From Pseudomonadota bacterium (GTDB taxonomy: Bacteria > Chloroflexota > Ktedonobacteria > Ktedonobacterales > JADMIN01): 64,000 nucleotides of DNA. The stretch is taken from NCBI GenBank assembly GCA_021324535.1, contig JAJPIU010000106.1, positions 3,961 through 67,960 of the forward strand. The letters are read 5' to 3'. A program made the translations under genes and the position numbers. Under the pieces are notes generated by a model. It did not search any database. It had not been told where the DNA came from and saw nothing but the letters and a program-made list of their open reading frames with translations. Below are positions 7,340-44,741 of the stretch, piece after piece. Within the stretch, counting starts at the first letter, position 1; each line of letters starts with the position of its first letter.

Positions 7340-8560
7340 CTATTCGTCTTCGTCCCAGTGCGCGGGAGGAGCCAGCCCTGCGTCATCGTCGGACACATCA
7401 TCGTGTGTATGTTCGCCGGAATTGGCGAAGCGGCCCTCAAGCTCTGGCAGGTGCGAGGTGACACGCAAGACCGTTGACTGCATCTCAAACTCGTGCTCTT
7501 CCGAAGCTGGCTGGTCAGATTGATCTGGCTGGCTGGGCTGGGCTGGCTCCGGCGCGCTATCTATTGGGGCAAGCTGGGGCAGGGGCGCCACCGGGCGGGG
7601 AGCCTGACGGGGCAATATCCAGCCGCCAGGCGTCATGGGCGGCTGGGCGGGTGATTGTTCCCGGCTCCAGCGAAGCGCCTGGGCAAACTCGGTCGCGTCG
7701 GCGAACCGTTCGTCAGGCTCACGCCGCAACGCCAGCAAGACCACCTCCTGCACAGGCAGGGGAATATCGCGCCGGTACGCGGTGAGCGGCGGCGGATCGG
7801 CCACCATGCGACGCGAGGCTGCGGCCAGCGGCGTATCGGCCTCGAAGGGTAGTCGCCCTGTCAGCAGCTCGAAGAGCACGACGCCAAGCGAATAGAGATC
7901 AGAAAGTGGACCACCTGGCTCGCCAAGCACCTGCTCCGGGGAGAGGTAATCGGGCGTGCCGATCACTTGGCCGGTGGCCGTCAATGTGGTAAGGTCAACG
8001 CCCACCTGTCGCGCAATGCCAAAGTCGGTCAGCTTGGCCAACAACTCCATGCGCGCATCGAGGATCATCACATTCTGCGGCTTCACATCGCGGTGGACGA
8101 TGCCTGTGGAATGGGCTGCGGCCAGCGCCGCGCAGAGTTGCTCGCCGATCTGCCAGACCCACGAAAACGGCAACGGCCCCAGCCGACGCACAAGCTCCTT
8201 GAGTGTGGCCCCAAAGACATACTCCATCGCCAGATAGGGAACCGGTTTATCGGGGTCTTCCGACCAGGGAACGCGCGTGTTGGTCGGTGGGGGATAGGTG
8301 TAGCCGTAATCGAGCACGCGCACGATGTTCGGGTGGGTCAGCGTGGAAGCCATCCGCGCCTCGCGCCTGAAGCGTTCAGCCGCCTCCGGGACGAGTGGCC
8401 CGTTGGTGCGCAGCACCTTCAGCGCGACGATATGCTCAGTGCGCAGGTCAACACAGCGATAGACAACCGCCGTACCGCCAATGCCTACCCGCGCCAGCGC
8501 GCGGTAGCGTTCGGCCAGCGGCGCCACACCACTGCCACTTGCGTTTGCTGCTGCTGTCAT
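7340..8560 (-). CDS. Ser/Thr protein kinase (Hanks type)
   Basis: 406 aa. Motifs: GIGGTAVVYRC...VALKVL, HRDVKPQNVMI, DFGIAR, GTPDYLSPEQ. AGGAGG lies 2-3 nt before the ATG. The C-terminus is Pro-rich and acidic. Confidence 0.9.
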   Translation of the reverse strand: MTAAANASGSGVAPLAERYRALARVGIGGTAVVYRCVDLRTEHIVALKVLRTNGPLVPEAAERFRREARMASTLTHPNIVRVLDYGYTYPPPTNTRVPWSEDPDKPVPYLAMEYVFGATLKELVRRLGPLPFSWVWQIGEQLCAALAAAHSTGIVHRDVKPQNVMILDARMELLAKLTDFGIARQVGVDLTTLTATGQVIGTPDYLSPEQVLGEPGGPLSDLYSLGVVLFELLTGRLPFEADTPLAAASRRMVADPPPLTAYRRDIPLPVQEVVLLALRREPDERFADATEFAQALRWSREQSPAQPPMTPGGWILPRQAPRPVAPLPQLAPIDSAPEPAQPSQPDQSDQPASEEHEFEMQSTVLRVTSHLPELEGRFANSGEHTHDDVSDDDAGLAPPAHWDEDE

Positions 8561-8623
8561 GACTCCTCCTAGAGATCTGTCCTAAACTTTCGCGTGAGCC
8601 AATCAAAGAAGGCGCGTTGATCG

Positions 8624-8960
8624 TCAAGCGTTGAGCATAGGTAGCCGCTTTTGGACATGGGTAGCAGAGACGATAAGCGTTACCCGGAGAGCGCGTTTGC
8701 CGCGAAGGGCAGAAAGAAGTGATGCGCCTATCTCTCTGGCGATGGGGGAGGGAGCGCATTGCCAATCTGGCGATATGCGGCGGTTTTTCCACCACTGAAC
8801 GTCCACTCATCAGGGAAGCCCTGAAGGCGCGCGGTCATTCGCAAGGTCAGGCGCAGGCGGCTTTATCGTTATCCACAGCGCCAACCGTAGCGAATCCTGC
8901 TTGCTCAAGGCCAAGCGCCTCACCACCTCCGCTTGAGCACAGAACAAGCGCCGTCAACAT
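8624..8960 (-). pseudogene. Remnant of a DNA (cytosine-5) methyltransferase, internally deleted and frameshifted
   Basis: Three minus-strand frames read in turn. (1) 8960->8850: MLTALVLCSSGGGEALGLEQAGFATVGAVDNDKAACA* (motif I region). (2) 8850->8731: LTLRMTARLQGFPDEWTFSGGKTAAYRQIGNALPPP (motifs IX-X). (3) a third frame: PIAREIGASLLSALRGK. The catalytic PC motif, ENV motif and target-recognition domain are all missing. Confidence 0.7.
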
Positions 8961-26900: not shown

Positions 26901-27660
26901 TCAGCTTTCCTGGCTCAGGGGAGCCAGTTCTAACAGGTCGTAGGTATTGCGATGCACTCCTATTCCATGCTCGACAAGAAGAGCTACCAATTGCTTACCA
27001 TTCATAAGCGCCACCGGGACAGCATCCCCTCGCTCAGCCTCAACTCGCGCCCCAGAACTAAAATCGCTGGTGGTGATGATGAGTCCTTGCTCATGTGTTC
27101 CTAATGCGCCGCGTACTTGCTGTATCGTTGGAGCCTGGACATTGGTTTTCCATCGCTTCACTTGCACAGCCATACGTGTACGAATGACATCGCCTACAAC
27201 GAGTGTTCCGCGTACATCAATGCCACCATCCCCCGACCAGTTTGTAACCTCAACCTTCTCAAATCCAATAGTCGCAAGCATCTCGCCAATCAGTGACTCG
27301 AATTGGTCAGGAGGCATTGAGGTAAGTTGTGTAAGCATCTGTAAGTGAACGCTTGCATTATGGCGTTCGATTTGCGCAGCCAGTCCTTGATCTTCCTGCC
27401 AACGGCTCAAGCCGAGAAAGCCGCACCCTAGCTTGACAAAGCGTGGCGAAACACCACGCTTGTTTCTTCTTGCAATTTCTTCCAGTACAGAGGCATAGAG
27501 GGTAGCTTCGGGGGTTCTGCCATTTGTCTCAATAAGACCAAGCGAGAATGCCTGCTGCGTAATATCACGGTAATGGAGCGGCTGCTGCTTTCCGGAAAAT
27601 TTCCAACACTTGCTCAGCGGCATCGGTAAACGAGAGTACGTACTCGTGAGCTAGAGCCAA
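26901..27660 (-). pseudogene. Mrr-like type IV restriction endonuclease (HARE-HTH plus Mrr_cat), interrupted by a 1-nt frameshift
   Basis: The track ORF (26901..27623) carries the Mrr_cat core (WSGDGGIDVRGTLVV...MAVQVKRW...GLIITTSDFSSGA). The true N-terminus, ALAHEYVLSFTDAAEQVLEIF, is in another frame and stops 9 codons after the A4/T4 run at 27596-27602. The local GC is low (27/60 at 27241-27300). Confidence 0.7.
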
Positions 27661-29502: not shown

Positions 29503-29512
29503 AAATATAGGC

Positions 29513-29538
29513 GCTCCCATCTCACAGAGGATGGGAGC
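29513..29538 (-). terminator. Terminator of the low-GC cassette
   Basis: GCTCCCATC-N8-GATGGGAGC forms a 9-bp stem. On the minus strand it is followed by TATATTTTTA. Confidence 0.6.
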
Positions 29539-29609
29539 AGGAGCCGAAGCGGCGCGCTGGGCGTCTTCTGATGCTTCAACTCGTCAAAACTCGTCAAGCA
29601 TCGAGGCGC

Positions 29610-31055
29610 TCAGCTCTGCTCAGTGAGCAGCTTGAAGAGCAGGGAGGCCAATAACGCGAGGAGAACATAGCCGGTAACACTCGTGAGGACGAGGAGAACC
29701 TGTGTACTGAAACCTCCACAATAGGCAGCCAGTGAGGAATTGGAGCCAAGCGCCGTGAGATTTGTGACGGCAATGTAGAGATAATGCACGAAAATCTGCA
29801 CGTAATCAAACCAGGAGGTAGGATGCGGACGCTCCGCAGGACAAAAGAGTGTTCCATGCCAAACCGCCGGAACTCCTGGATTGAGCAGGTCGTTGAGAAA
29901 GAAAAGCGCCGTGTCCACCCCTATGACGGTTAGCACGGTACGGACATAATTGGCTGGCCGTGTGCCATAGCCAGTGGTGACTTTCAGTAGCCATAGCGTT
30001 GCAGCTTGAAGCCGAAATTGAAGGCGCCGCCAAAACTGAGGATGAGGCTGAGACCGACATCTCCAGAGTTCCCGGACAATCTCGTCACGTAGTTGATAGC
30101 GCAACTCGGATTGCGCGTCTTCAGCCTGCGAGAGCCAGCCGACCTCTTCGGGAGCAGCTTCGCCAAATTGCTTGATCAGACGACGAAACTGTTCCGAGTC
30201 GAGAAAACCGGTCAGAAAGTAGTGCCGATTCGTCAGTTGGTACAATTCCCTGTCCCATTCCCGAAGGCGAGTAAGATACTTGCGAACATCATCTCTTATC
30301 GGTGCGCGCGTGGGATTATCTTTTCCGAAGCCACTACCGCTCATCTGTCGCCCTAAAAAATTCGCCGACGCGCGTTTTTGATACAAAGACGCCTCAAGCC
30401 AGAGCAACCAGATTTGATGCGCTCTTGCAGTCGTCAAACCAATCTCACTAAGTCTGGCCTCATCAGCGCGGATTTTTCGGCTCTCCTGTGGATCATCCCG
30501 AAGAAACTCATTTCTCCAAAGACGTTCAGCCGCTCCACCAATATCGCTGATGAGATCGCCCCATAATTCGTCAGCCTTTGTCGCATCTACGGGATCTGGC
30601 TCACTTGTATCAGCAGATGAATCTTGAGTAGCCCCAGCGGCGCTTTGCATGCTATCTTTTGGGTCACTCTTTTGGCCGGGATAAAGCGCCTTTGCGATAA
30701 GGTGATCTATTTGCTGTTCAAAGTAGCTGAAAAGCTCGTCTCTGGCGCCAAGATCTCCCATTCGTTGCCGGGTCAAATAGCCAATCACCTCTTCGCAGGT
30801 AATAGGGCCAGCATCATCGAACATCCCAGTAGCCCGTGCCAACAAGTGATTGTACAGGTGGTGAAGGGCATCATGATTGCCCGCTTCCGCCTGTTGGAAT
30901 TGCTTCTCTCGCTCAGCGTTGATCGCAATTCCCCTGCTACCCAGATAGGTGCGGTATTTCCCGGAGAATGTTGGCGCATCTCCTTTTTCGGCGGTAGTGA
31001 TCAAGGCGCGTATCTCAGGCGTGCGTAGTTTCGGTGGTACTGCGGTGTCGAGCAT
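29610..31055 (-). CDS. Unknown ~350-aa cytoplasmic helical domain fused to a C-terminal 2-TM K+-channel-like pore domain with a degenerate filter
   Basis: 481 aa, with GGAGGGA 7 nt before the ATG. C-terminus: LLKVTTGYGTRPANYVRTVLTVIGVDTALFFL (TM1, the GYGxRP motif seen in Ion_trans_2-type proteins) ... FVHYLYIAVTNLTALGSNS (a pore-helix/filter-like segment; canonical is T-[VL]-G-Y-G-D) ... VLLVLTSVTGYVLLALLASLLFKLL (TM2). GC is about 52-55%. Confidence 0.7.
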   Translation of the reverse strand: MLDTAVPPKLRTPEIRALITTAEKGDAPTFSGKYRTYLGSRGIAINAEREKQFQQAEAGNHDALHHLYNHLLARATGMFDDAGPITCEEVIGYLTRQRMGDLGARDELFSYFEQQIDHLIAKALYPGQKSDPKDSMQSAAGATQDSSADTSEPDPVDATKADELWGDLISDIGGAAERLWRNEFLRDDPQESRKIRADEARLSEIGLTTARAHQIWLLWLEASLYQKRASANFLGRQMSGSGFGKDNPTRAPIRDDVRKYLTRLREWDRELYQLTNRHYFLTGFLDSEQFRRLIKQFGEAAPEEVGWLSQAEDAQSELRYQLRDEIVRELWRCRSQPHPQFWRRLQFRLQAATLWLLKVTTGYGTRPANYVRTVLTVIGVDTALFFLNDLLNPGVPAVWHGTLFCPAERPHPTSWFDYVQIFVHYLYIAVTNLTALGSNSSLAAYCGGFSTQVLLVLTSVTGYVLLALLASLLFKLLTEQS

Positions 31056-31086
31056 CTCATGCTCCCTCCAGCAACTCTTCGCGACT

Positions 31087-31141
31087 TTTCAGAGCATTTC
31101 AGAGTAGTTTCAGAGTAGTTTCAGGGTAGTTTCAGGGTGTT
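31087..31141. repeat. 11-bp tandem repeat x5 (TTTCAGRGTAG) between the receiver-like and channel-like genes
   Basis: ttttcagagca|tttcagagtag|tttcagagtag|tttcagggtag|tttcagggtgt. On the minus strand this reads (CYCTGAAAnnn)5. The last unit contains the TGA stop of the receiver-like gene. Confidence 0.9.
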
Positions 31142-31593
31142 CTCTGGTGTAGCCAGTCCCGAACGGCCTTTTTCAGGTCTTCATTCTTGTCTTTTCCACG
31201 AAAGATAATTTGGCTGAGAACAACACGATGCGGGTGTTTTGGTAGCTTGGAGAGCTCGTCGAAATCATTTTCCGATGCTGTAAAGACAATGATGTGCGTC
31301 CTTCCCCACCAGTCTGTTGAGGGTTTGTTCCAGACGTGAACAAGAAATGGCCGCATGTTTTCGATCTCGCTTGACACACCACGATCCAGTGAGACATCGC
31401 AAATGAGCAGGATGCGTTCATCTCGCGTTGCCTGGTTGTCCTGCAATTCCAGCACAATCTGATCGAGGTCTTCTTTGGTTCTGGCTTCGCGAATTGTACA
31501 GGAAATCTCCTCTTGTGAAAGCAGCCTCATGAGCATGCTCTTCCGCTTGGCCAGCGAAAGGGGTACATTTTCCAAGAGTATGAGCACCGCCAT
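31132..31593 (-). CDS. Stand-alone receiver (REC)-like protein with an atypical acidic pocket
   Basis: 153 aa, with GAGGAGG 5 nt before the ATG. It shows a flavodoxin-like alternation: AVLILLENVP (E-N where DD is usual), ERILLICDVSLD (candidate phospho-Asp), HIIVFTASEN (conserved T), and IIFRGKD (candidate K). It has no output domain. Confidence 0.65.
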   Translation of the reverse strand: MAVLILLENVPLSLAKRKSMLMRLLSQEEISCTIREARTKEDLDQIVLELQDNQATRDERILLICDVSLDRGVSSEIENMRPFLVHVWNKPSTDWWGRTHIIVFTASENDFDELSKLPKHPHRVVLSQIIFRGKDKNEDLKKAVRDWLHQRTP

Positions 31594-31632
31594 TGGAGCC
31601 TCCTCACATCGAGTACACCATCATACTGACGT

Positions 31633-34600
31633 CTAGGCTGATGTCACAGCTGGCAGGGCCAGGCAGAACACATTTTGCAGGGTCGGAGTATCGGCATCGG
31701 GCCGGTAATATGCCCTCCCGCCCAGCCGCTTCGCGATACTGCGTACCTGGAAAAGTCCAAGCCCACCACTATTGAGCAATTTTCGCAACTGCCGCCGTTG
31801 TATTTCGTTGCCCTGCCCAGCGTCATGCGGCGTTTGTCGGTCGCCTTCACTAGGCGCTGAAAGGGCGAGCGCGCTCAGCCGAAGCTGCCGCGCCGCCTCA
31901 CCCTGCACATTCGGCCGGAAGATGCGTTCCCGGTCTCGTTCGGGGATGGGAAGACCGGCGCTCGCCACCTCAAAGATGACCTGATTGGCCTCTTGCTTGA
32001 GTCTGATCAAGATCGGCGAGTCCGGATCAGCGTACTTGATCGCGTTGTCTATATACTGGAACAACGCCGCACGAATGAGCCGCCCTCGCTCTGCGCCAGC
32101 CTCCAGATAGATTGGTTGCAGCTTCTCATTTGGAACATTCCATTGGAGTGTCTTTGCGAACGCGGAGGCGAAGGTATGAATCGGCGCCCTGAACACTTGG
32201 AGGATAGTCTGGGCGGTTTGCCTCTCGTACGCCGCCGTGTTGTTGGTAGTCACAGGTGGCTGCAGCTCATCGTTCGACAGATCGAGGAACCAGGTAGACA
32301 GGTCGCTGATGAGCTTTATCAGGTCTCCAATGTCCTCAGTAAGTTGCTGTGCCTCATCGAGACCCATGCGCCGTTCGGCAATATCATTGGCGCGTTCGAT
32401 CTTCTCCCAGATGTCGTTTGCGCCATCAAGTTCATCTCCCAATGGAGAGAGCGCAATTGCGATGTCATGGCGCATCTGGCGAATCAGATCGTTGCGCGCC
32501 TGAATCAGCGCAACGGCGTTGATGCCCCCAACCAGTGTTTCGGCGAACATCGTCAGGATTTCTTTATCGAAGTCGCTGAACTCGGCCACATTGGGGTGAG
32601 CCAGCGCAAGCACGCCGAACGACTCGATCTCCCCTTCCGCGCCGCCTTCGACCGGGCGCAGCAAGGGAACACATACGAGCGAGCGAGCCTCTATGGGCCA
32701 GGGTTCTCCCTCTCGCTCTCTTATTGGCTCATCCGTTCGATCCAAGATCAATACCGGCTGCTGCGAACGGAGCGCCTCCAGGAAAAGCGGATACACGACG
32801 GGAAGAGGCGTATCATCGTACACATATTCGCGAAACGACTCTTCACCGCTTTTGTTATACGCCCGCCAGTACAGTTTCTCTACAAAGGGCTTATCATCTT
32901 GAGCAGCCCAGGTGAGCATCACGGTTCCCCAGCCCGCCTGAATATCTGAAAGCTCGGCGGCGTCCTGAAGCGCCCGGCGCATAAAATCACCGAGGTTGGC
33001 CGATTGCGTTTGCAGGATGGTTGTCTCGAAATCGCGGAGCTTCTCGCGCAGCACGGCAAGAACCTTCAGGCGCGTTGCAGTCATCATCTTAGAGATCAGA
33101 TCGGCTGCCGTTTGGCAGGCATGTTTGACATCCTCTGTGAAAGTGCCCTCGACCCCACCCTCTAGATTGAGCACGCCAACTACCTGTGTTCCTTCCGCAA
33201 CCGGCAGAAAGATGCCTGACAGGCTTTGTCGGGTCGGGTCGCTATCGAACCAACTTGTCTGATCGCGTGTCTCTTTGTCGTTGAATACAATTATCCGCCG
33301 TTCGAGAAAAGCGGCGCTCGAGACACCCTTATCGAAGGAAAACGTATGTTCCTCGCGACTTGTAATCTCATCGGGTGTCTCCCTGTGATCGGTGGAAACC
33401 AGATAAGACAAACGACCACGCTCACGGTCTACGGCCCCGGAAGCCGTATAGGCGTTGAGCGCAACCGTAAACCGCCCAACCCAGCACCCAATCAGATCGT
33501 TCATTTGCTCAATGATACTTAGGATGGTTGCGTTGCGCTTCTTGCGCAGCAAAGTAAAGTCGCTGAGAGCATCTAGCTCTCGGATGCTGCGATCCACCTC
33601 ATTGGACAGTTCGGCCAACGTCATCTCGATGGACGTTTTCACGGCGCGATCAATCACCGAGAGAGCGAACGCCGCCAGTTGTGCCAGAAACTCGATCCAA
33701 TCAATGTAGTCGGAGGTAAAGTGATGGACGGTGTTGGATTCCACATCCAGCACACCAAGCGCGGTCTGGCCGATCGAGAGCGGCGCTGCAACTTCGCTTC
33801 GGGCGGCGGGGAAGTAGGGAAGGTATTCTCGTCCTTCAAGGAGCTTGGAAATGTCTTGAATGGGTTTTGTTTCACGATCAGTATAGGCAGAGCCGGACAC
33901 ACCCTCAGTTGCAAGCCAGCGTGTGCCAACTGCCGTGTTCACTGGCGCGTTCGTCATCTGATCACGCATCACCAGATAGGTTTGCTGACCCTCCGTGACT
34001 TCCGCCAAAGCAAATGCGCCATGTTCGGCATGGGTATACGTCGTCGCCCAGCCAAGAATCTTTTCGCCTACTACTGCCCGTATCTGCTGGATGAGGTCGC
34101 GCTTGACCGACTTGCCATCGCTGGGAAACAAAGGGGCAAGCAATGCCTGCAATTCGAGCGAGCAGGCAAGCTCGTCAGCAAGGCGACGATCCCGCGCATA
34201 CTCTATGCTGCGGCTGATCGCATACACCGCAATGTCCGCCACCTGTTGCAGGGCAGGCAAATCAGCGTTTCTACTGAACGCTCTGATGCCAGGGGCGACC
34301 AGCCCAATCACGCCCAACGAGCCACCAGGGCCGATCAACGGGACAATCAATTCAGATGTTTCGCCGAGCGTTGTGCCTGAGTCGCGGTAATCTTTGTCTT
34401 CTTGGGCGTGATCGATCACTTCACCCTGCTGATTGGCATAGATTCTCCACGCGATGCTGTCTCCCTGCTTCCATTCCCACTCAGGCTCGGAATTGAAGGA
34501 GCCGATACGTCCCGCGCGCACGGCGAAGAGCTTGCGCTCACTCCCAGAAAGATTATGCTCCTCTCTGCGCACAAGGATCAGCCCACCTGAGACCTGAGTT

Positions 34601-35310
34601 GGCCCGACAACGGAGGCGGCGACACGCAGAATCTGGTAGCAGGTCTCCGTAAGATCGTCCTGAGCGATTGCGAACGCGATCCTTGCGCGCATCTTCGTCA
34701 GGAGGTCTTCCACAATCGCCTGTTCGGACATTGGTTCAAAACGAATCGTCCGCATTTCATTGTGGAGTTCCTGCGCGATACCACTGTGCTGTAGACGCGC
34801 AATAGCATCGGCAGGGAAGGCGTTCTCCTTGCTGCTTTCAATGTTGAGGACGCCGATGATGTCATTATCGCTGCGCAGAGGATATGCTAACACAGAGCGT
34901 GTGGAGAACAGTGTGGTCTGTTCGCTGGTATCCATGGCACGCGACCGTGGGTTACGCTCCTCAATCGCGGCGATCACAGGCGTGCCGGAAGCGTAAGCGC
35001 GCCAGACAACGCTGTTTCCTGAGCGAATACGGCTAATCAACGCCACTGAGGTCTCAGGTTGGATTTCCGACGCAATGAGTTGGCGTGTTCCCGGAGTACA
35101 AATGAGCGCCTCGGCCATTCCTTCATCGCTCAGCCCGAATACTTCCAGCGCGCGAACCAGCAACGCTTTCAGCTTATTTGTCCACCGATAGGAAGGCTGA
35201 TTGGTCTCTACGCCAATCGCCTCCGCTTCACTAATACCTGCTGGCGCCGGAGGGCTTGCGATTTCTTTGTCTTTCCCGCGACCAAACCTAATCCAATCTC
35301 TCATAGGCAT
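31633..35310 (-). CDS. Cytoplasmic sensor histidine kinase with five GAF-like modules
   Basis: Start re-set to MPMRDW (GGGGAGG lies 8 nt upstream; track start 35433 lies at or above the predicted TSS). Five recurring GAF C-terminal signatures: IIGVLNIESSKENAFPADA, SLGVIGLVAPGIRAFSRNA, ALGVLDVESNTVHHFTSDY, VVGVLNLEGGVEGTFTEDV, SFGVLALAHPNVAEFSDFD. H-box: LIRQMRHDIAIALSPL. N-box: YIDNAIKYA. G2: GGLGLFQVRSIAKRLGG. There is no TM segment. Confidence 0.85.
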   Translation of the reverse strand: MPMRDWIRFGRGKDKEIASPPAPAGISEAEAIGVETNQPSYRWTNKLKALLVRALEVFGLSDEGMAEALICTPGTRQLIASEIQPETSVALISRIRSGNSVVWRAYASGTPVIAAIEERNPRSRAMDTSEQTTLFSTRSVLAYPLRSDNDIIGVLNIESSKENAFPADAIARLQHSGIAQELHNEMRTIRFEPMSEQAIVEDLLTKMRARIAFAIAQDDLTETCYQILRVAASVVGPTQVSGGLILVRREEHNLSGSERKLFAVRAGRIGSFNSEPEWEWKQGDSIAWRIYANQQGEVIDHAQEDKDYRDSGTTLGETSELIVPLIGPGGSLGVIGLVAPGIRAFSRNADLPALQQVADIAVYAISRSIEYARDRRLADELACSLELQALLAPLFPSDGKSVKRDLIQQIRAVVGEKILGWATTYTHAEHGAFALAEVTEGQQTYLVMRDQMTNAPVNTAVGTRWLATEGVSGSAYTDRETKPIQDISKLLEGREYLPYFPAARSEVAAPLSIGQTALGVLDVESNTVHHFTSDYIDWIEFLAQLAAFALSVIDRAVKTSIEMTLAELSNEVDRSIRELDALSDFTLLRKKRNATILSIIEQMNDLIGCWVGRFTVALNAYTASGAVDRERGRLSYLVSTDHRETPDEITSREEHTFSFDKGVSSAAFLERRIIVFNDKETRDQTSWFDSDPTRQSLSGIFLPVAEGTQVVGVLNLEGGVEGTFTEDVKHACQTAADLISKMMTATRLKVLAVLREKLRDFETTILQTQSANLGDFMRRALQDAAELSDIQAGWGTVMLTWAAQDDKPFVEKLYWRAYNKSGEESFREYVYDDTPLPVVYPLFLEALRSQQPVLILDRTDEPIREREGEPWPIEARSLVCVPLLRPVEGGAEGEIESFGVLALAHPNVAEFSDFDKEILTMFAETLVGGINAVALIQARNDLIRQMRHDIAIALSPLGDELDGANDIWEKIERANDIAERRMGLDEAQQLTEDIGDLIKLISDLSTWFLDLSNDELQPPVTTNNTAAYERQTAQTILQVFRAPIHTFASAFAKTLQWNVPNEKLQPIYLEAGAERGRLIRAALFQYIDNAIKYADPDSPILIRLKQEANQVIFEVASAGLPIPERDRERIFRPNVQGEAARQLRLSALALSAPSEGDRQTPHDAGQGNEIQRRQLRKLLNSGGLGLFQVRSIAKRLGGRAYYRPDADTPTLQNVFCLALPAVTSA

Positions 35311-35436
35311 AGGGCATACCTCCCCGGCGCCAACGTTTGCCAATGCCCTTGGATGAGGTGAATATACCTCTCTCGCACGAACAGGCTTATGAGCGGAGTG
35401 AAGCACAAAGGCATAGAATAGCGCCTCTTGCATCTC

Positions 35437-35445
35437 ACTATAGCA
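35437..35445 (-). promoter_or_regulatory. Candidate extended -10 promoter (TGCTATAGT) of the low-GC cassette
   Basis: The minus strand reads ...aaaatatGCTATAGTgagatg. It sits in an AT-rich 60-bp gap after the upstream response-regulator stop. The -35 element is weak. Confidence 0.35.
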
Positions 35446-35496
35446 TATTTTATACGTTTGTGTACGAGAAGTGGTTCAGTCGAAGAATTCTCCGAT

Positions 35497-36192
35497 TCAT
35501 AGTTGCACCAAGCCTTGTTGAGCGGCCAGCGCCACCGCTTCCGTGCGGTTGCCTGCGCCCAGCTTACGCAACACCGCGCCTACATGGTATTTCACCGTGC
35601 GCTCGGTGATGCCCAATTCATGCGCAATCTCTTTGTTTTGCAGGCCACGCGCCAACAGATTGAGCGTTGTGCGTTCGCGCGGGGTCAGTGTCGGCGGCGC
35701 TCCGGTCTTACCCTCGTGTGGGCGCTCCATCGCCCGGAGCAACTTTGAAGCAACCAGCGGCGTCAATAGCGAACCGCCCTGGTGCGCCACCCGCACCGCC
35801 CGAAAGACCTCCTCACGCGGCGCGCCTTTCAGCAGATAGCCCTGCGCGCCTGCCCGCACGGCAGCCATAATACGTTCGTCGGTGTCGTAGGCCGTGAAGA
35901 CGATGGCGTTGACGGTGATCCCTTCCGCACGCAAACGTTCGAGCGCGCCAACGCCATCCAGCACTGGCATCGCGAGATCCAGCAGCAACACATCCGGGCG
36001 CAGCTTGCGTACCAGCGCCACCACTTCCTCGCCGTTGGCTGCCTCGCCCACCACTGTGAAGTCACGCTGCCCGCTCAGGATCGCCACGAGGCCATCGCGC
36101 ACGATGGGATGATCGTCGGCGACGAGAATGCGAATTGGCTGTTGCCCTGCCAGAGTCGCATTTCTCGTATTGCTCGCATTGCTTGCGTTCAT
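35497..36192 (-). CDS. NarL/LuxR-family response regulator
   Basis: 231 aa. REC: ILVADDHPIVRDGL...DVLLLDLAMPVLDG...VFTAYD...GYLLKG. LuxR HTH: LTPRERTTLNLLARGLQNKEIAHELGITERTVKYHV. Confidence 0.9.
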   Translation of the reverse strand: MNASNASNTRNATLAGQQPIRILVADDHPIVRDGLVAILSGQRDFTVVGEAANGEEVVALVRKLRPDVLLLDLAMPVLDGVGALERLRAEGITVNAIVFTAYDTDERIMAAVRAGAQGYLLKGAPREEVFRAVRVAHQGGSLLTPLVASKLLRAMERPHEGKTGAPPTLTPRERTTLNLLARGLQNKEIAHELGITERTVKYHVGAVLRKLGAGNRTEAVALAAQQGLVQL

Positions 36193-36208: not shown

Positions 36209-37489
36209 TCAGGAGTGCTCTTGAGTATCTGCCTCGGTGGATAGTCTGCCTTCCAGCGGGATCACCACGCGAAAGCGTGTTCCTCGTTGGGGCGCGCTGG
36301 CAAGCGACGCCACGCCGCCAAGCAGCTTCGCGCGCTCGTTCAGGCCAATCAAGCCATAGCGCCCCGGCTCGACCTGCGACATCTCGAAACCCTGGCCGTT
36401 GTCGGTGATCGTCAGCGTGACGCGACGCTCTTCGCTGGCCAATCGTATGGTGATGCGCGTCGCGTTGGCGTGTTGCACGCTGTTGGCCACCGCCTCCTGC
36501 GCCATGCGATACAGCCCTACCTCGATGCGTGTCGGCAAAGGACGCGCGCCGCCCGTCACCCGTAGCTTGATGTCAACCCCGCTGCTGGCTGCCTTGTCAT
36601 GCGCCAGCGCACTGAGCGCCTGGGCCAGCGTGCGCCCTTCCAGTGGGGCGGCGCGCAAGTCGAGGACGGAACGGCGCGCTTCTTCGAGCGTGGCGCGTGT
36701 CAGGGTGAGCGCCTGATGGATGGCGCGGCGCGCCTGCGCCGTGCGTTGCGCGTCTGCTTCTACGGCGCTTGACTGGCTTGAGGCGTCAGAGGCGTCAGAG
36801 GCGTCAGAGGTGTCAGAGGTGTCAGGCAATTCGAGCGATTCGAGCAGCGCGTCGGCTGATTCGAGCTGCAAGGCGACACCAGCCATGCCCTGCGCCAGCG
36901 TATCGTGAATCTCGCGGGCCAGCCGGTTGCGTTCCTCTGTGGCTCCTGCCTCGGCGCTGCGCGCGAAGAGCCGCGCCCGTTCGATGGCCACGCCCAGCAT
37001 ATCGCCAATCGTATGCAACAGTCGCAGGTCATCAGGCGAGAGTTCGCGCCAGTCGGGGCTGGCGACGTTCATCACACCGAGCCGCTGCTCGTTGGCGTAG
37101 AGCGGAACGCTGGCGTGGTAGCGCAGCCCGTTCGCGCCGTCCACCAGCTTTTTCAGCCGCGAACAGGTGACGACGTTGACATTGGCCGCGCCCGCTAGGT
37201 CGCCCGCAACAAAGGTTTCCAGGCAGTAGCACCAGCCCTCCATGCGGTCGGGATGACGCGCCAGCGCAGGAGGCAAGTGGAGCGACGCTGCAAGGTATGG
37301 CTCGCCGTCATCTTCACGCAACAGCCAGACCCAGCCAGTGTGCATGCCAAATACCCTGGCGACCTGCGCAAGCGTTGTGCGCAGCGCCTCGCCAAGGTCG
37401 GTGACGCTGTTGAGCGTCGCGGCGATCTCGTTGAGGATCACCAGATCGCGCTGGCGACGCCGGTTGTTGGGCGATGGTGTCTCAGACAT
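36209..37489 (-). CDS. GAF-containing HisKA_3 (NarX/DegS-type) sensor histidine kinase, cytoplasmic
   Basis: Start re-set to MSETPSP (an alternative in-frame ATG lies at 37534). GAF: ARVFGMHTGWVWLL...LGVMNVASPD. H-box: ERNRLAREIHDTLAQGMAGV. HATPase: AVANSVQHANATRITI...DNGQGF...GLIGLNERAKLLGG. Confidence 0.85.
   Translation of the reverse strand: MSETPSPNNRRRQRDLVILNEIAATLNSVTDLGEALRTTLAQVARVFGMHTGWVWLLREDDGEPYLAASLHLPPALARHPDRMEGWCYCLETFVAGDLAGAANVNVVTCSRLKKLVDGANGLRYHASVPLYANEQRLGVMNVASPDWRELSPDDLRLLHTIGDMLGVAIERARLFARSAEAGATEERNRLAREIHDTLAQGMAGVALQLESADALLESLELPDTSDTSDASDASDASSQSSAVEADAQRTAQARRAIHQALTLTRATLEEARRSVLDLRAAPLEGRTLAQALSALAHDKAASSGVDIKLRVTGGARPLPTRIEVGLYRMAQEAVANSVQHANATRITIRLASEERRVTLTITDNGQGFEMSQVEPGRYGLIGLNERAKLLGGVASLASAPQRGTRFRVVIPLEGRLSTEADTQEHS
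36781..36825. repeat. In-frame 9-bp tandem repeat (aggcgtcag x3, aggtgtcag x2) inside the kinase gene
   Basis: It encodes PDTSDTSDASDASDAS in the loop between the two DHp helices. Confidence 0.85.
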
Positions 37490-37532
37490 GGCAAACGGTA
37501 TAATTTCTGTGATGAAGAAAGGAGTCTCTCTC

Positions 37533-38318
37533 ATGCAGTATACTCCATCCCCCACGACGTCTGCCGGAGACGCTTCTCTCGCGCGTCCACTTGTTCCCGC
37601 CGCAGAGAGGCCGACGAAAGCGCCCACTAATATGCGATTACGCCTCACCGCGCTCGATGGGGCAATACTGCTCTCGTTTGGCCTCTTGGTTGCTTGCGAT
37701 GCGACTGCGGCGGTGACGCACGCGGGCTGGTTTTCATCTATGTTGATCACGCTGGGGGAGTCATTGCTGCTAGCGGGGTATATGCTGCGGCGAGCGTGGC
37801 GTCCAATAGTGGGACGGCTGCTGCTCTTTGGTCTGATTGCCGGTATTCTGGAACTGGGAACCGACGCGGCTGGCGAGATTGTCGCCCACTCGCTGAGCTA
37901 TCCACCGAACGAGCCGATGCTCTGGCGTTCGCCGTTGTATATGCCGTTCTCGTGGATGATGGTGCTGACGCAGATCGGCTATCTGGCGTGGCGGCTCTGT
38001 GCCGCGCGTCCGCTTGGGCTTGGCTGGCCGCGCTGGGGCGCCATGCTGATACTCTTCGCATGGGGCGCGCTCAACATCCCGCTCTACGAAGAGTTCGCTT
38101 ATTATGCAGGTTGGTGGCGTTATACCGCGACGAGGCTGCATATCGGGCATACGCCACTGTACGTCTCCCTCTTCGAGGGATTGGTGGTCGCCGCGCTGCC
38201 GTTGCTGCTGGGCAGGCTTTCACAGCTTCGCTGGTGTGGGGTGGCCTGGCGCGCAGTTGCGCTTGGCCTGTGGATACCCTGGGCGGCGCTCTTCGCGTGG
38301 CTGCTCGTCGGGCGCTAG
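37533..38318 (+). CDS. Polytopic membrane protein, hypothetical
   Basis: AAAGGAG lies 8 nt before ATG 37533. It is 261 aa with 6-7 hydrophobic helices (LLLFGLIAGILELGTDAAG..., MPFSWMMVLTQIGYLAW..., LYVSLFEGLVVAALPLLLG). Confidence 0.6.
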   Translation: MQYTPSPTTSAGDASLARPLVPAAERPTKAPTNMRLRLTALDGAILLSFGLLVACDATAAVTHAGWFSSMLITLGESLLLAGYMLRRAWRPIVGRLLLFGLIAGILELGTDAAGEIVAHSLSYPPNEPMLWRSPLYMPFSWMMVLTQIGYLAWRLCAARPLGLGWPRWGAMLILFAWGALNIPLYEEFAYYAGWWRYTATRLHIGHTPLYVSLFEGLVVAALPLLLGRLSQLRWCGVAWRAVALGLWIPWAALFAWLLVGR

Positions 38319-38393: not shown

Positions 38394-40118
38394 GTGACCA
38401 AGAGCGAGAGCGAGGCCAGCGCCAAGCTGGCGCATAAGCGCACCCCTGAGGAAATCTCAGAGATTATGCGGCGCGTGCAGAGCAGCGATACCGCTCCTGA
38501 GGCGCGGCTGCGCGCGGCGCTGGCGGACTGCGGGCTGACTTCACCTGATCCTACCGCTAGCGCAACGCTCTCCGGCAAGCCCGATCTTGTGTTTGCTGAG
38601 GCGCGGCTGGCTGTCTTTGTGGATGGCGACCTCTGGCACGGCAATCAGTGGTGGCGGCGTGGTCTGACCTCGCTCGAAGAACAGTTCCGCGAGACGCCCT
38701 CGAAGGCGTATTGGCTGCGCAAGATCAGGCGCAATATGCAGCGCGACAGCGCCGCCACCGCCGCGCTGCTCGATGACGGTTGGGCGGTGTTGCGCCTGTG
38801 GGAGAGCCAGATCAACGTCGACCTTGCGGGCTGCGTCGCCCTGATCGCCAGCGCGCTCGCATCCACTGGCAAGCGCCAACCCCCAACTGCGACGATCAAC
38901 GAGCGCGGCGCAGAGTATGACGTTGCGCGTGTTGCATCTTCGGCTGACGAGGCGCGGGCGCGGCTGGCGCGCAAGACATGCGCCGAGTTTTTCGCAGGCA
39001 TTGGGTTGATGCGCATGGGGCTTGAGCGCGACGGCTGGTCGGTCGCCTTCGCCAACGATTACGATGAACGCAAGGCGGCGATATATCGCGGCCACTTTGG
39101 GGCGGATGATCGCTTCCATCTGGGCGACATCCATGCTTTGTCGGTTACAGACATCCCCAATGTGACGCTGGCGACCGCCTCGTTTCCCTGCAACGACCTC
39201 TCGCTGGCGGGCGCGCGTCAGGGTTTGGCGGGCAAACAGTCGTCAGCGTTCTGGGGCTTCACACGCATCCTCACCGAGCTTGGCGCGCGCAAGCCGCCGC
39301 TGATCCTGCTCGAAAACGTCGTCGGCTTCCTCACCTCGCATGGCGGCGAAGATTTGACCCAGGCGTTGCGCACGCTAAACAATCTTGGCTACGCAATGGA
39401 TATGTTCCAGCTCGACGCCGCCCACTTCACCCCGCAGAGCCGCCAGCGCCTCTTCCTGCTTGGCATGCGCGCCGATCTGCTGACGCCAGCCGAAACCGAT
39501 CAAACGGATGTCGCGTCCTTCGCCTGCGATGCGCGCCCGCCTGCTGTACTGGCCGCCATCGGGCGTCGCCCGGATATTCTCTGGCGTCTGCGCCGCTTAC
39601 CTCCATTACCCACCCTTGCGCAACGCCTGCCCGACATCCTCGATGACTTGCCGGAGGATGCGCCGGAGTGGTGGAGCACGGCGCGCACGCAACGCCTGCT
39701 CGACCAGATGAGTCCACGCCACCGCGCGCTGGCCGAGCGGCTGATGGCTGGCGAGACATGGAGCTATGGCACAATCTTCCGCCGCACACGCAACGGCACG
39801 CCGATGGCGGAGCTACGCGCGGATGGCATCGCAGGTTGCCTGCGCACACCACGCGGGGGCAGCGCACGTCAGATTCTCTTCAAGGCAGGCTACGGTCAGG
39901 CGCGAGCGCGGCTGCTCACCGGACGCGAGGCGGCGCGGCTGATGGGCGCCGATGACTATACCCTTCCTAAGACGCTCTCGCTGAACGACGTGCTGTTTGG
40001 CTTTGGCGACGCCGTATGTGTGCCTGCCACCGCCTGGATCGCGACGTACTATCTCAACCCACTGGTCAACGAGTTGCTGCGGGGGCATGTGTTGCAGGCG
40101 CCAGCTATGCGCGTGTAG
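38394..40118 (+). CDS. Fusion protein: Vsr-like very-short-patch-repair endonuclease domain plus DNA (cytosine-5) methyltransferase
   Basis: 574 aa with a GTG start 5 nt after GGAGGC. Vsr part: ISEIMRRVQSSDTAPEARLRAAL...KPDLVFAEARLAVFVDGDLWHG...YWLRKIRRNMQRD...GWAVLRLWESQI. C5-MTase part: EFFAGIGLMRMG (motif I), SFPCNDLSLAG (motif IV), LLENVVGF (motif VI), FGDAVCVP (motif X). Confidence 0.85.
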   Translation: MTKSESEASAKLAHKRTPEEISEIMRRVQSSDTAPEARLRAALADCGLTSPDPTASATLSGKPDLVFAEARLAVFVDGDLWHGNQWWRRGLTSLEEQFRETPSKAYWLRKIRRNMQRDSAATAALLDDGWAVLRLWESQINVDLAGCVALIASALASTGKRQPPTATINERGAEYDVARVASSADEARARLARKTCAEFFAGIGLMRMGLERDGWSVAFANDYDERKAAIYRGHFGADDRFHLGDIHALSVTDIPNVTLATASFPCNDLSLAGARQGLAGKQSSAFWGFTRILTELGARKPPLILLENVVGFLTSHGGEDLTQALRTLNNLGYAMDMFQLDAAHFTPQSRQRLFLLGMRADLLTPAETDQTDVASFACDARPPAVLAAIGRRPDILWRLRRLPPLPTLAQRLPDILDDLPEDAPEWWSTARTQRLLDQMSPRHRALAERLMAGETWSYGTIFRRTRNGTPMAELRADGIAGCLRTPRGGSARQILFKAGYGQARARLLTGREAARLMGADDYTLPKTLSLNDVLFGFGDAVCVPATAWIATYYLNPLVNELLRGHVLQAPAMRV

Positions 40119-43109: not shown

Positions 43110-43352
43110 ATGGGCGAAAACACTTGGCTGGAGCAACAAGCCATCGAGCGGCTTGCCCAGCATATTCCATTTGAAACCGATCCGCGCACCAAAGCCGAGT
43201 TGATCGAGATGCTCCGGGGCCTGGTGCTACGGGTGGGACGGCAGGTAGATCGTGCGGCGTTTGGCTTCGAGGCCAGCCTTGAACTCAAACGCCTGGGTCT
43301 GTGGGATCGCCTGGGCGGCGAGACTAACGCCCCTCCATGGGACGCCAGATAG
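43110..43352 (+). CDS. Hypothetical small protein (80 aa)
   Basis: MGENTWLEQQAIERLAQHIPFETDPRTKAELIEMLRGL... I recognise no family, and the support is weak. Confidence 0.3.
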   Translation: MGENTWLEQQAIERLAQHIPFETDPRTKAELIEMLRGLVLRVGRQVDRAAFGFEASLELKRLGLWDRLGGETNAPPWDAR

Positions 43353-43374
43353 CCAGATAGATCGTGCGGCGAGA

Positions 43375-43830
43375 CTAACGACCTTCCACCTGCAGAATCG
43401 CCTGCTCCGGCGAGATCGAGGCGTAGACCAGGCTGGCGAAGCCCGGATAGTAGCGATCCGCTGTCGAAAGGTTGGTGTACACCAGTTGCTTGATCAAAGC
43501 AGAGGTCAGTTGCGCCCCCTCGACATCAATGCTGGTTTTGTAGCGTACCTCGCCGTCGCTCATATCAAGCTCAAGGTTGCCGATCACCAAACCATAATTG
43601 GCGCGCGTGACATACTCTGCCGCAAGGAAACGTTTTTCAATTGGCGCCTTTACCGGATAGACCGAATAGAAAAGAAACTGCTCCTGCTCTTCGCGCGCCT
43701 TCGCGTAGCACACAAAGTTGGCGTTTTTGCCGGTCACGCTCATCAACAGCGAGGGCTGGCCTTCGAGCGGCATGAATTTCCAGTTATCTTCACGGAAGAA
43801 CGACACCATCGCGTCATAAATCCGTCCCAT
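43375..43830 (-). CDS. YbjN-domain protein (putative sensory/chaperone-like)
   Basis: 151 aa. MGRIYDAMVSFFREDNWKF...SLLMSVTGKNANFVCYAKAREEQEQFLFYSVYP...NYGLVIGNLELDMSDGEVRYKTS matches the YbjN/T3SS-chaperone-like pattern. Confidence 0.7.
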   Translation of the reverse strand: MGRIYDAMVSFFREDNWKFMPLEGQPSLLMSVTGKNANFVCYAKAREEQEQFLFYSVYPVKAPIEKRFLAAEYVTRANYGLVIGNLELDMSDGEVRYKTSIDVEGAQLTSALIKQLVYTNLSTADRYYPGFASLVYASISPEQAILQVEGR

Positions 43831-44162
43831 GAGCTACCTCACAACCTTAAACAACGTACATGGGCGCGATTCCGCGATCCCACCGGTTAGTGTAGTGTAG
43901 CACATTGCCCCTCTCTCACGCTGCACGGTCAGGCGCCTATCCGAATCAAGTTCCATCAGGCGAACTATGCAATAAAGCGTGAGGCATTTTCCAGAATGCG
44001 AAAATTGGCCCGCGTCATGCTATTTACCATTGGCGGAAGATAAGTTTCTTCCAGGTGGGCGATGTGAGTTCTGGGTTCACCCATCGGGCCGATGGGCAGA
44101 CAGATCGGTACGTCTGCCAGCATGGCGATGATCACATTCGACCGCTCGTTAAGGAGGATAGC

Positions 44163-44594
44163 ATGCTCGCACAACGAAGTACGCATTACTGGCTGTGGTT
44201 CATTCTGTTTGGTGTCATCTCGGCGCTGGTCAACTTCTTCAACCACACGGCTCCAACCTACGAAACGTGGTGGCTGCTTGTCACTGGTCTGATTGGTGTG
44301 GTGCTGGGTATTGGGTTGTTTTCCTCCATCGCTCGTCCATATGACATCATCATTGGCATTCTGTTCACCGGTGTGGGACTGTTGGGCGTTCTGCACAATT
44401 TTGATGTCAATATTGTGACAAGCAACCCAACAGTTGCAGGCCATGTTGACAGTACGAATATCCTGGGGTTGAGCTTTGCCCTCCCCTATGCGCTGATTCA
44501 CACGCTGCTGGGATTGACTTCGCTCAATACCGGTCTGAACCGGCGCGCTTCGGCCTCGCCCTCGGTGGTGGTTGAGCCACGCGCCGCCGCGTAA
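44163..44594 (+). CDS. Small 4-TM membrane protein (DUF4383-like, tentative)
   Basis: AAGGAGG lies 6 nt before ATG 44163. It is 143 aa. The upstream part of the track ORF is non-coding-like. Confidence 0.55.
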   Translation: MLAQRSTHYWLWFILFGVISALVNFFNHTAPTYETWWLLVTGLIGVVLGIGLFSSIARPYDIIIGILFTGVGLLGVLHNFDVNIVTSNPTVAGHVDSTNILGLSFALPYALIHTLLGLTSLNTGLNRRASASPSVVVEPRAAA

Positions 44595-44741
44595 CCTCAC
44601 CTACCCACGTTGCCAACGAAGTAGCACGAAACATCTAGAACTCTCAGGCGCTCCCATCACACAGGAGCGCCTACTTTCTTTGTCCGATTTGGCGCCGGAT
44701 GTGCTAGTGGCGTAGGGATAGTTCTGGAAAGGAACCGTGCT

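Follow-up and report, generated by a model that had tools for sequence, protein, structure and literature searches.

What output can a histidine kinase have when the two proteins encoded behind it carry no DNA-binding or enzymatic domain recognized by Pfam? This question is raised by a three-gene cassette in a 64,000-nucleotide (nt) stretch of a Ktedonobacterales genome (contig JAJPIU010000106.1 of assembly GCA_021324535.1, forward-strand positions 3,961 to 67,960; "the window" below), all three products of which are unannotated or "hypothetical" in public data. An earlier description made from the letters of the window alone, which we call the sequence-only reading, had already noted the lack of such domains, and had proposed that a compositionally foreign cassette with a five-GAF kinase forms a phosphorelay whose end point is a membrane pore, possibly with a role in conflict or abortive infection. 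The three co-directional minus-strand genes lie where it had placed them and carry the Shine-Dalgarno (SD) motifs that it had given, according to the list of open reading frames (ORFs) and inspection of the sequence:

31633..35310 (35310->31633), minus strand: multi-GAF kinase gene, 1225 amino acids (aa); SD motif GGGGAGG 8 nt before the ATG
31132..31593 (31593->31132), minus strand: receiver (REC)-like gene, 153 aa; SD motif GAGGAGG 5 nt before the ATG
31055->29610, minus strand: membrane-protein gene, 481 aa; SD motif GGAGGGA 7 nt before the ATG

Our answer, which we hold with confidence and doubt in about equal parts, is that the cassette is a self-contained, non-transcriptional two-component module acting on a channel-like protein. 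All three parts come from known superfamilies; the receiver and the membrane protein represent undescribed families.

The three genes belong together in other genomes as well. In about 12 homologous loci, with 20-40% identity, the order kinase, ~150-180-aa protein, membrane protein is found in every locus that extends far enough, so that the synteny on which the sequence-only reading depended is conserved. The complete order is present in the window, L001, L005/6, L009/10, L011 (in a Ktedonobacterales metagenome-assembled genome, MAG), L014, L017, L023 (an intermediate subfamily) and two JGI contigs, and at the contig ends of L007/8 and L012 the small gene is still found upstream of the membrane gene. 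Intergenic spacings elsewhere range from -11 to 43 nt, which suggests translational coupling, and are 39 and 76 nt in the window. The kinase of the window is 35-41% identical over ~1155 columns to those of the syntenic loci. A word-indexed search of 5.8 billion proteins returned only ten clusters, and when 1.84 billion representatives were searched exhaustively with HMMER, using a profile of the C-terminal membrane module, 77 proteins were found, 28 of them at E<=1e-30. The named genomes carrying the cassette are two, both Ktedonobacterales MAGs; the three-gene module is rare and conserved in soil Chloroflexi (Ktedonobacterales).

The features of the kinase on which the argument depends are the following:

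32521..35133, minus strand: sensor region with five GAF domains, approximately residues 60-930 (Pfam; boundaries approximate)
32467..32469, minus strand: His948, the predicted phospho-acceptor in the H-box (IRQMRHDIAIALSPL), from the kinase alignment
31636..32079, minus strand: HATPase_c domain, with the N-box DNAIKY (Asn1089, 32044-32046), a variant G1 box VASAG and the G2 box GGLGLFQ (31747-31767)
31768..31887, minus strand: ATP-lid stretch of 40 residues (1142-1181), ~34 of which are an insertion in the alignment of 5-9 kinases

Pfam detects GAF_2 (7e-46) and GAF (1.6e-29), each in five stretches, and HATPase_c (2.5e-8; 34.7 bits versus a cut-off of 26.4), and no HisKA-type Pfam model matches. 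The homologous kinases likewise possess five GAF stretches, the C-terminus is matched by histidine kinases from the PDB, and hydropathy reveals no transmembrane (TM) helix outside the GAF cores. These results, together with the alignment with the syntenic kinases, bear out the identification of a cytoplasmic histidine kinase with five GAF domains. We found no Cys-His or NKFDE motifs by eye in the kinase sequence, and bilin-type and cGMP-type GAF domains were accordingly rejected as candidates. The syntenic kinases have in common an H-box-like motif, RHDxxxALxPL, and His948 is retained in all seven (7/7) kinases paired with Asp-bearing receivers; the N-box DNAIKY and the G2 box (GSGxGLFQ in the family, GGLGLFQ in the window) are also conserved among them. 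The Asp of the G1 box is replaced with Ser or Asn throughout the kinase family. A dead kinase was considered on these grounds and rejected, since solved kinases (9m08 and 8dx0) also lack the G1 Asp and the other boxes are conserved. The ~34-residue insertion in the ATP lid is present only in the kinase of the window, not in eight homologues, and explains why the Pfam HATPase_c match is truncated (profile positions 5-78 of 111). Pfam detected neither an Hpt domain nor a second REC domain among the three proteins; as Hpt and any other second His domain are missing, the "phosphorelay" of the sequence-only reading should be replaced with a two-component transfer.

The proposed partner of the kinase, the 153-aa protein, is far less easily recognized. 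It has no match in Pfam, NCBIfam, PADLOC or the PHROGs, and the Pfam model Response_reg matched 0 of 5 members of its family at E<=10. A word-indexed homology search with the protein found only itself, and one with the alignment found three proteins; the profile of the family matched only designed Rossmann 2x2 proteins among PDB sequences. Its receiver-like nature, as suspected from the sequence, emerges through profile-profile comparison only: aligned by hhalign with six genuine REC domains, the six-member family yields a probability of 93.9% (E 1.6e-7, score 47.8, 119 columns), versus scores of 12.6 for the reversed profile and <=16.8 for 30 column shuffles, and with 5, 8 or 9 family sequences the probability is 84.8%, 92.5% or 91.5%. 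The alignment places the following residues at the positions of the REC active site:

31396..31398, minus strand: Asp66, the predicted phospho-acceptor, in register with the REC acceptor Asp (hhalign)
31567-31572, minus strand: E8-N9, aligned with the REC acidic pair
31279-31281, minus strand: T105, aligned with the conserved REC Thr

The acceptor Asp is invariant in 9/9 stand-alone homologues. Among the eight stand-alone receivers that were aligned, Asp is found in 8/8, Thr or Ser in about 6/8 and Lys in 5/8; the conserved REC Lys aligns with a Lys in the family consensus and with Ser127 in the receiver of the window. The acidic pair is present in 7/7 full-length aligned receivers (in the window as the variant E-N), and the receiver of L023 has the complete quintet. 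The AlphaFold2 (AF2) model, of low confidence (pLDDT 61), shows four strands alternating with helices; Foldseek found nothing in the PDB at E<=0.001 with this model, and the REC domains 2vui, 4xlt and 3hv2 are among its matches at E~1. We conclude from these alignments that the 153-aa protein is a very divergent receiver domain, of which the window carries a somewhat atypical copy.

That receiver and membrane protein act on each other is indicated by relatives in which they appear as a single chain. P0071 comprises an N-terminal receiver (IVED...IIFD...IIYSA; hhalign probability against the small-protein family 88.9%, E 2.4e-6), the helical domain and the TM module, and in six further representatives the fused N-terminal domain is likewise a homologue of the small protein (84.9%, E 6.4e-6, 131 columns), but one without acidic pocket and Asp. 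Judging by their alignments, genes 2 and 3 are joined here as Rosetta-stone fusions, with the receiver ahead of the output part, as is usual in response regulators, and the direct functional link between the two proteins, assumed in the sequence-only reading, is thereby corroborated.

The Asp-less fusions also reveal what became of the kinase. In three loci (L019, L020 and L022) an upstream multi-GAF protein of 1154-1191 aa, homologous to the kinase of the window over ~1100 columns, has the H-box His replaced by T, A or Y (3/3), an N-box that reads ASASAA, AAATSA or FSAYE, and a G2 box that reads PERRLIE, PERRLVE or AEQYF. They form a sister branch with only two genes, one for a pseudo-kinase and, behind it, one for a protein in which pseudo-receiver, helical domain and channel-like module are joined:

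L019, 249-5221
L020, 358-5440
L022, 218-5167

In L018, a kinase fragment upstream of an Asp-bearing fusion keeps the G2 box. Seven of seven stand-alone Asp-bearing receivers are thus paired with motif-intact kinases, and three of three Asp-less ones with pseudo-kinases. Such a paired loss is expected if, in the intact branch, precisely these two proteins serve to pass phosphate from His to Asp, and it speaks for His-Asp chemistry in the branch to which the window belongs, as had been proposed. Read in this way, the pattern makes the three proteins parts of a single machine, also where the phosphoryl chemistry appears to have been abandoned; the sister branch would represent a two-component pathway turned phosphorylation-independent, which implies allosteric signaling.

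What kind of target the receiver would have depends on the 481-aa protein, which falls into two parts:

30045..31055, minus strand: N-terminal helical cytoplasmic domain, residues 1-337 (~340 aa), from the AF2 model; no known family
29613..30044, minus strand: C-terminal channel-like module, residues 338-481, from hydropathy, AF2 and hhalign

The AF2 model calculated with ten homologues (pLDDT 78) has an all-helical N-terminal domain, which is present in 71 of the 77 family representatives and whose invariant residues include W165, E177, W180, R228, W267, G306, W307 and E317-R319-Y320. Neither Pfam, NCBIfam, PADLOC nor the PHROGs gave a match to the protein, and Pfam recognized no DNA-binding or enzymatic domain in it. 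Foldseek found nothing in the PDB at E<=0.001 with the model, and profile searches of PDB sequences with alignments of the full-length protein and of the TM module gave no meaningful matches; the helical domain is therefore without a known relative.

Nowhere is the protein better conserved than in its C-terminal module (57% versus 39% mean column identity). The module begins with an interfacial helix and the invariant motif TTGYGTRP, followed by TM1 (368-387), NDLLNPG, Cys405 in an outer loop, a 20-residue re-entrant helix with a filter-like loop (residues 415-440, YLYIAVTNLTALGSNS; the conserved loop is T-N-L-T-S/A-L-G-S-N), YCGG and TM2 (449-477). Hydropathy places the TM segments at 373-391 and 448-479, and the AF2 model has helices at 367-391, 415-434 and 449-479 and a loop at 435-448, i.e. 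a predicted TM1 - re-entrant helix - loop - TM2 topology. Across 73 modules the Gly at the filter position is retained in 70, and the two Cys residues of the outer loops are both present in 67, both absent in 5 and split in 1, a distribution consistent with a disulfide. The K+ selectivity signature T-V/I-G-Y/F-G is absent: the filter position reads T-A-L-G-S-N (T-S-L-G-S-N in the family consensus), and the TTGYG string of the protein sits on the cytoplasmic side, ahead of TM1.

The relationship of this module to ion channels was detected transitively. Among the ten close members of the family, Pfam Ion_trans_2 matched only one (E 0.63), and distant members with the helical domain were matched at E 0.07-0.2; a first hhalign comparison of a ten-sequence module alignment with K channels gave a probability of 0.4%, and a signal appeared only with a deeper alignment and with pentapeptide-repeat proteins as intermediates. 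In the search of 1.84 billion sequences the module profile matches two pentapeptide-repeat proteins, P0087 and P0089, over the full module length (E 5e-4 and 1e-3), and the C-termini of both pass Ion_trans_2 (30.2 and 43.6 bits versus a cut-off of 22.5). The hhalign comparisons, in which the family is represented by 73 modules with the pentapeptide proteins excluded and the K-channel sequences are approximate, gave the following results:

Family versus pentapeptide modules: 96.5%, E 7e-10, score 66.1 (controls: reversed 14.0, shuffled <=21.6)
Ten close members alone versus pentapeptide modules: 95.0%, E 3.6e-8, score 49.1
Pentapeptide modules versus five K channels: 90.6%, E 1.3e-6, score 39.9
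Family versus five K channels, directly: 16.4%, E 1.5e-3, score 29.1 (controls <=19.6)

In the direct alignment YLYVAVTNLTSLGSN falls on the pore helix and filter of KcsA, and TM2 on its inner helix. From these comparisons we take the TM module to be a divergent member of the P-loop pore domains, one whose filter is not of the K+ type; its P-loop ancestry we regard as highly probable, and the channel-like C-terminus of the sequence-only reading is upheld as distant homology to P-loop (Ion_trans_2) pores.

These findings suggest the following mechanism. The five GAF domains of the soluble kinase would sense a cytoplasmic signal, leading to autophosphorylation on His948, and the phosphate would pass from His948 to Asp66 of the dedicated, highly divergent stand-alone receiver. 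The receiver would then act by direct contact on the helical cytoplasmic domain of the 481-aa protein, and this domain would alter the state of the pore formed by TM1, the re-entrant helix, the loop with the non-K+ filter T-x-L-G-S-N, and TM2. The output would most likely be a changed ion permeability of the membrane, not gene regulation. Like other P-loop channels, which are tetramers, the channel would probably assemble as an oligomer, and it would probably be non-selective for cations; we infer the direction of signal flow, the oligomerization and the type of ion. The parts of this proposal differ in strength: phosphotransfer from kinase to receiver is very probable, direct coupling of receiver and membrane protein is probable, and regulated ion conduction as the output is a possibility toward which we lean a little less than against it. 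More tentative still is the combined view of a His-Asp pathway that directly gates an ion-conducting P-loop pore, i.e. a fast non-transcriptional switch from kinase to membrane potential, together with an evolutionary series that would lead from a separate receiver, through a receiver fused to the channel, to a pseudo-kinase with a pseudo-receiver fused to the channel. By that final stage, phosphoryl signaling would have given way to an allosteric link between the five-GAF sensor and the channel.

Several observations weigh against this proposal. No Pfam model recognizes the receiver (0/5 at E<=10), and its AF2 model is poor (pLDDT 61). Pfam Ion_trans_2 has no match to the membrane protein of the window at E<=1, the direct hhalign comparison with the approximate K-channel sequences gives only 16%, and conduction cannot be assumed because the filter is without the carbonyl-cage GYG motif. 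The window carries the least canonical of the active-type cassettes (Asn9 in place of Asp, Ser127 in place of Lys, the variant G1 box and the ATP-lid insertion), and this copy could be attenuated. Finally, that the membrane protein is the output and not the input is suggested by the N-terminal position of the receiver in the fusions and by analogy.

The last point leaves room for a reversed flow of the signal. The membrane protein might be the input, its disulfide-braced outer loops sensing an extracytoplasmic or membrane cue that would pass through the helical domain and a receiver-like adaptor to the kinase, whose real output would lie elsewhere, e.g. in the LuxR-type regulator encoded just upstream. 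Such an arrangement would account for a kinase devoid of TM segments and for outer loops that are highly conserved and contain a co-varying Cys pair, and two-component pairs indeed lie directly upstream in the window (a GAF-HisKA_3 kinase with the LuxR-type regulator) and in L001 (KdpD/OmpR-type). However, conservation of the upstream pair does not extend to other loci, no DNA-binding regulator accompanies the cassette consistently, five GAF domains are already ample cytoplasmic input, and the fusions put the receiver at the N-terminus, in the standard receiver-then-output order. We regard a membrane input as unlikely.

Alternatively, the TM module could be a non-conducting anchor or oligomerization device derived from a channel ancestor, and the helical domain a tethered scaffold whose binding of a partner would be switched by the receiver. 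The absence of the canonical GYG filter and of an Ion_trans_2 match, the weak direct similarity to K channels, and the many invariant aromatic and charged residues of the helical domain would all fit a scaffold of this kind. A mere anchor should be less constrained, however, whereas the TM module, with the loop at the filter position (T-x-L-G-S-N, with Gly in 70/73 modules) and the outer loops, is the part of the protein that varies least, and we consider an anchor quite unlikely. We retain the two-component module with a channel-like target as our preferred reading.

A further question is whether the cassette is a self-contained transcription unit. The sequence-only reading had based this claim on an extended -10 upstream and a hairpin with a T-tract downstream, and our signal scan located both. 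The features in and around the transcript are:

35437..35464, minus strand: promoter-like site with a weak -35 (TACACA), a 16-nt spacer and an extended -10 (TGcTATAGT), matching the consensus at 9/12 positions plus TG; the extended -10 reads TGCTATAGT at 35445-35437
29512..29539, minus strand: intrinsic-terminator-like hairpin with a 10-bp stem and 6 GC pairs, followed by CCTATATTTT
31087..31135, minus strand: 11-bp tandem repeat (CTGAAACTACT-like), 4.5 copies with 92% matches (TRF)
29578-29597, plus strand: perfect 10-bp direct repeat (AACTCGTCAA twice), just past the stop codon of the 481-aa gene and before the terminator hairpin

The hairpin sits between the convergent 481-aa gene and AMP-binding gene, and its T-tract has the orientation of the minus strand. 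The region contains 4 promoter-like sites versus 3.2 in shuffles and 8 terminator-like sites versus 5.8; this is no excess, so that the signals, although present as described, are plausible but unproven as the borders of a unit. An alternative in-frame ATG of the kinase gene at 35433 would give 1266 aa, yet the start at 35310 is preferred because 35433 is only 4 nt from the putative -10 and the homologous kinases begin near a conserved "RFGR" motif. The 11-bp repeat runs from the final codons of the receiver gene through most of the 76 nt that separate this gene from the membrane gene. It is specific to the window, since the spacers of the homologous loci, of only 1-43 nt, leave no room for it; it may have arisen by slippage, or it may serve for regulation or attenuation in this genome in particular.

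The base composition, compared within the 64-kb window, deviates in the manner that the sequence-only reading had described. The cassette block has 54.6% GC versus 61.1% for the window, the GC content at third codon positions (GC3) of its genes is 0.52-0.62 versus a median of 0.72, which puts all three among the eight lowest of 39 ORFs, and among the 3-kb tiles of the window the tetranucleotide distance peaks at 30001-33000 (28.1; mean 16.5, standard deviation 4.0). The GC content of the cassette is, however, lower than that of its flanks in 9/9 loci measured. Low GC thus goes with the module itself; taken alone it does not date a transfer, and it need not point to a recent one into the genome of the window. 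Two other patches of the window are also unusual: tile 57001-60000 is the second-strongest tetranucleotide outlier (27.9) at a normal GC content (62.7%) and with a strongly positive AT skew, and 43252-44600 comprises two divergent ORFs of ~210 aa (GC3 0.56-0.57) in a compositionally deviant 2-kb stretch of 56% GC.

The genes next to the cassette in the window, and the restriction-related genes that bracket it at a distance of 2-3 kb, are the following:

35497-36192, minus strand: LuxR/GerE-type response regulator, directly upstream of the cassette and co-directional
36209-37750, minus strand: complete GAF-HisKA_3 histidine kinase, likewise directly upstream and co-directional, with a short acidic Ser/Asp-rich repeat (DTSDTSDASDASDAS)
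26901-27623: Mrr_cat/NA-iREase1 protein of 240 aa, with a weak HARE-HTH match and the lowest GC3 in the window (0.48)
38394-40118: intact Vsr-Dcm fusion of 574 aa with normal GC

The Mrr locus had been called decayed; its gene is an intact 240-aa ORF with no visible decay. In the homologous loci the flanking genes vary and include a KdpD/OmpR-type pair with a Na/Ca exchanger, enoyl-CoA hydratase, transposases (four families), MscL, AraC and an amidase. An AMP-binding gene lies beside the cassette both in the window and in L023, and was rejected as shared synteny, the two proteins being only 25% identical. In L017 a gene for the mechanosensitive channel MscL (8286-8774) is convergent and immediately downstream of the cassette, and in L001 a KdpD/KdpE-type pair lies directly upstream of it, with the Na/Ca exchanger as another neighbor. 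These two loci offer anecdotal hints of ionic homeostasis, from which we slightly favor a role in ionic or osmotic adaptation.

That the cassette is instead an abortive-infection or conflict system, in which the kinase would detect infection and trigger a lethal membrane pore, is very improbable: a GC content below that of the flanks in 9/9 loci, transposases near the cassette in four loci, the Mrr and Vsr-Dcm genes within 3 kb in the window and a rare, patchy distribution (77 representatives in 1.84 billion) would be in keeping with it, but PADLOC (PADLOC-DB 2.0) matches only the generic ATPase region of the kinase (PDC-M43B, E 6.6e-9, 66 residues), the small and membrane proteins have no PHROG match, no relative was found in 2.9 million viral contigs, housekeeping genes (NADH dehydrogenase, luciferase-like, MacB/FtsX, amidase, MscL) or transposases make up most of the neighbors in other loci, and a stable branch of pseudo-kinases and pseudo-receivers is more easily reconciled with a physiological regulator than with a suicide trigger, so that the defense role raised by the sequence-only reading finds no evidence in its favor.

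How does a two-component module with a channel-like target compare with known systems? Most outputs of response regulators catalogued to date are DNA-binding, enzymatic or protein-binding domains. In the searchable full-text literature, a census paper included, we found no described case of a receiver domain regulating a P-loop channel, and none is known to us. If the proposal is correct, two-component signaling would gain ion flux as an output, and a new, small family would be defined, of channel-like proteins that combine a novel cytoplasmic domain with an unusual filter.

The closest parallels for the signaling half are CheA-CheY acting on FliM and DivJ/PleC-DivK, which likewise combine a kinase with H, N and G2 boxes and a single-domain receiver with an acceptor Asp, and which have a non-transcriptional output through binding to a target protein. 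The cassette differs from them in that its receiver is invisible to Pfam Response_reg, no Pfam HisKA model matches its five-GAF kinase, and its target is a conserved, co-transcribed and sometimes fused channel-like membrane protein.

For the membrane half, prokaryotic P-loop channels gated by cytoplasmic regulatory domains are represented by MthK (RCK, Ca2+), MlotiK1 (CNBD, cAMP) and NaK. They share with the cassette protein the TM1 - pore helix - filter loop - TM2 arrangement and a large cytoplasmic regulatory part, and the length of its filter resembles that of the non-selective NaK. In contrast to these channels, the cassette protein carries its regulatory domain at the N-terminus, this domain is all-helical and belongs to no known family, gating is proposed to depend on a phosphorylated receiver and not on a small ligand, the filter is T-x-L-G-S-N and not TVGYG or TVGDG, an invariant TTGYGxxP precedes TM1, and the homology is only transitive. 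The closest recognizable relatives of the TM module are P0087 and P0089 (pentapeptide repeats with a C-terminal Ion_trans_2), which share with it xTGYGxxxxRP before TM1, the filter region Y..S/A-h-T-x-h-T-S-L-G and E/Q-x-h-x-G-Y/h in TM2; their cytoplasmic part is a pentapeptide-repeat beta-helix, however, and they pass Ion_trans_2, whereas the protein of the window does not. P0087 and P0089 themselves appear to be an uncharacterized class of channel-like proteins.

Among abortive-infection systems, 2-TM pore effectors such as SLATT and the TM effectors of the CBASS type are similar in that a C-terminal two-TM module is encoded beside a sensor or signaling enzyme in a compositionally deviant cassette. 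The present cassette differs in having no PADLOC or Pfam SLATT match, a re-entrant helix of the P-loop type, and no enzyme that makes a nucleotide second messenger.

Finally, signaling by pseudo-kinases and pseudo-receivers is exemplified by DivL and by the pseudo-receiver domains of KaiA and the plant PRRs. This likeness applies to the sister branch (L019, L020 and L022) and not to the motif-intact cassette of the window, and what sets the sister branch apart from these examples is the joint degeneration of both partners and the fusion of the receiver to its target. The paired loss of catalytic residues amounts to a natural experiment on how phosphotransfer pathways become allosteric complexes.

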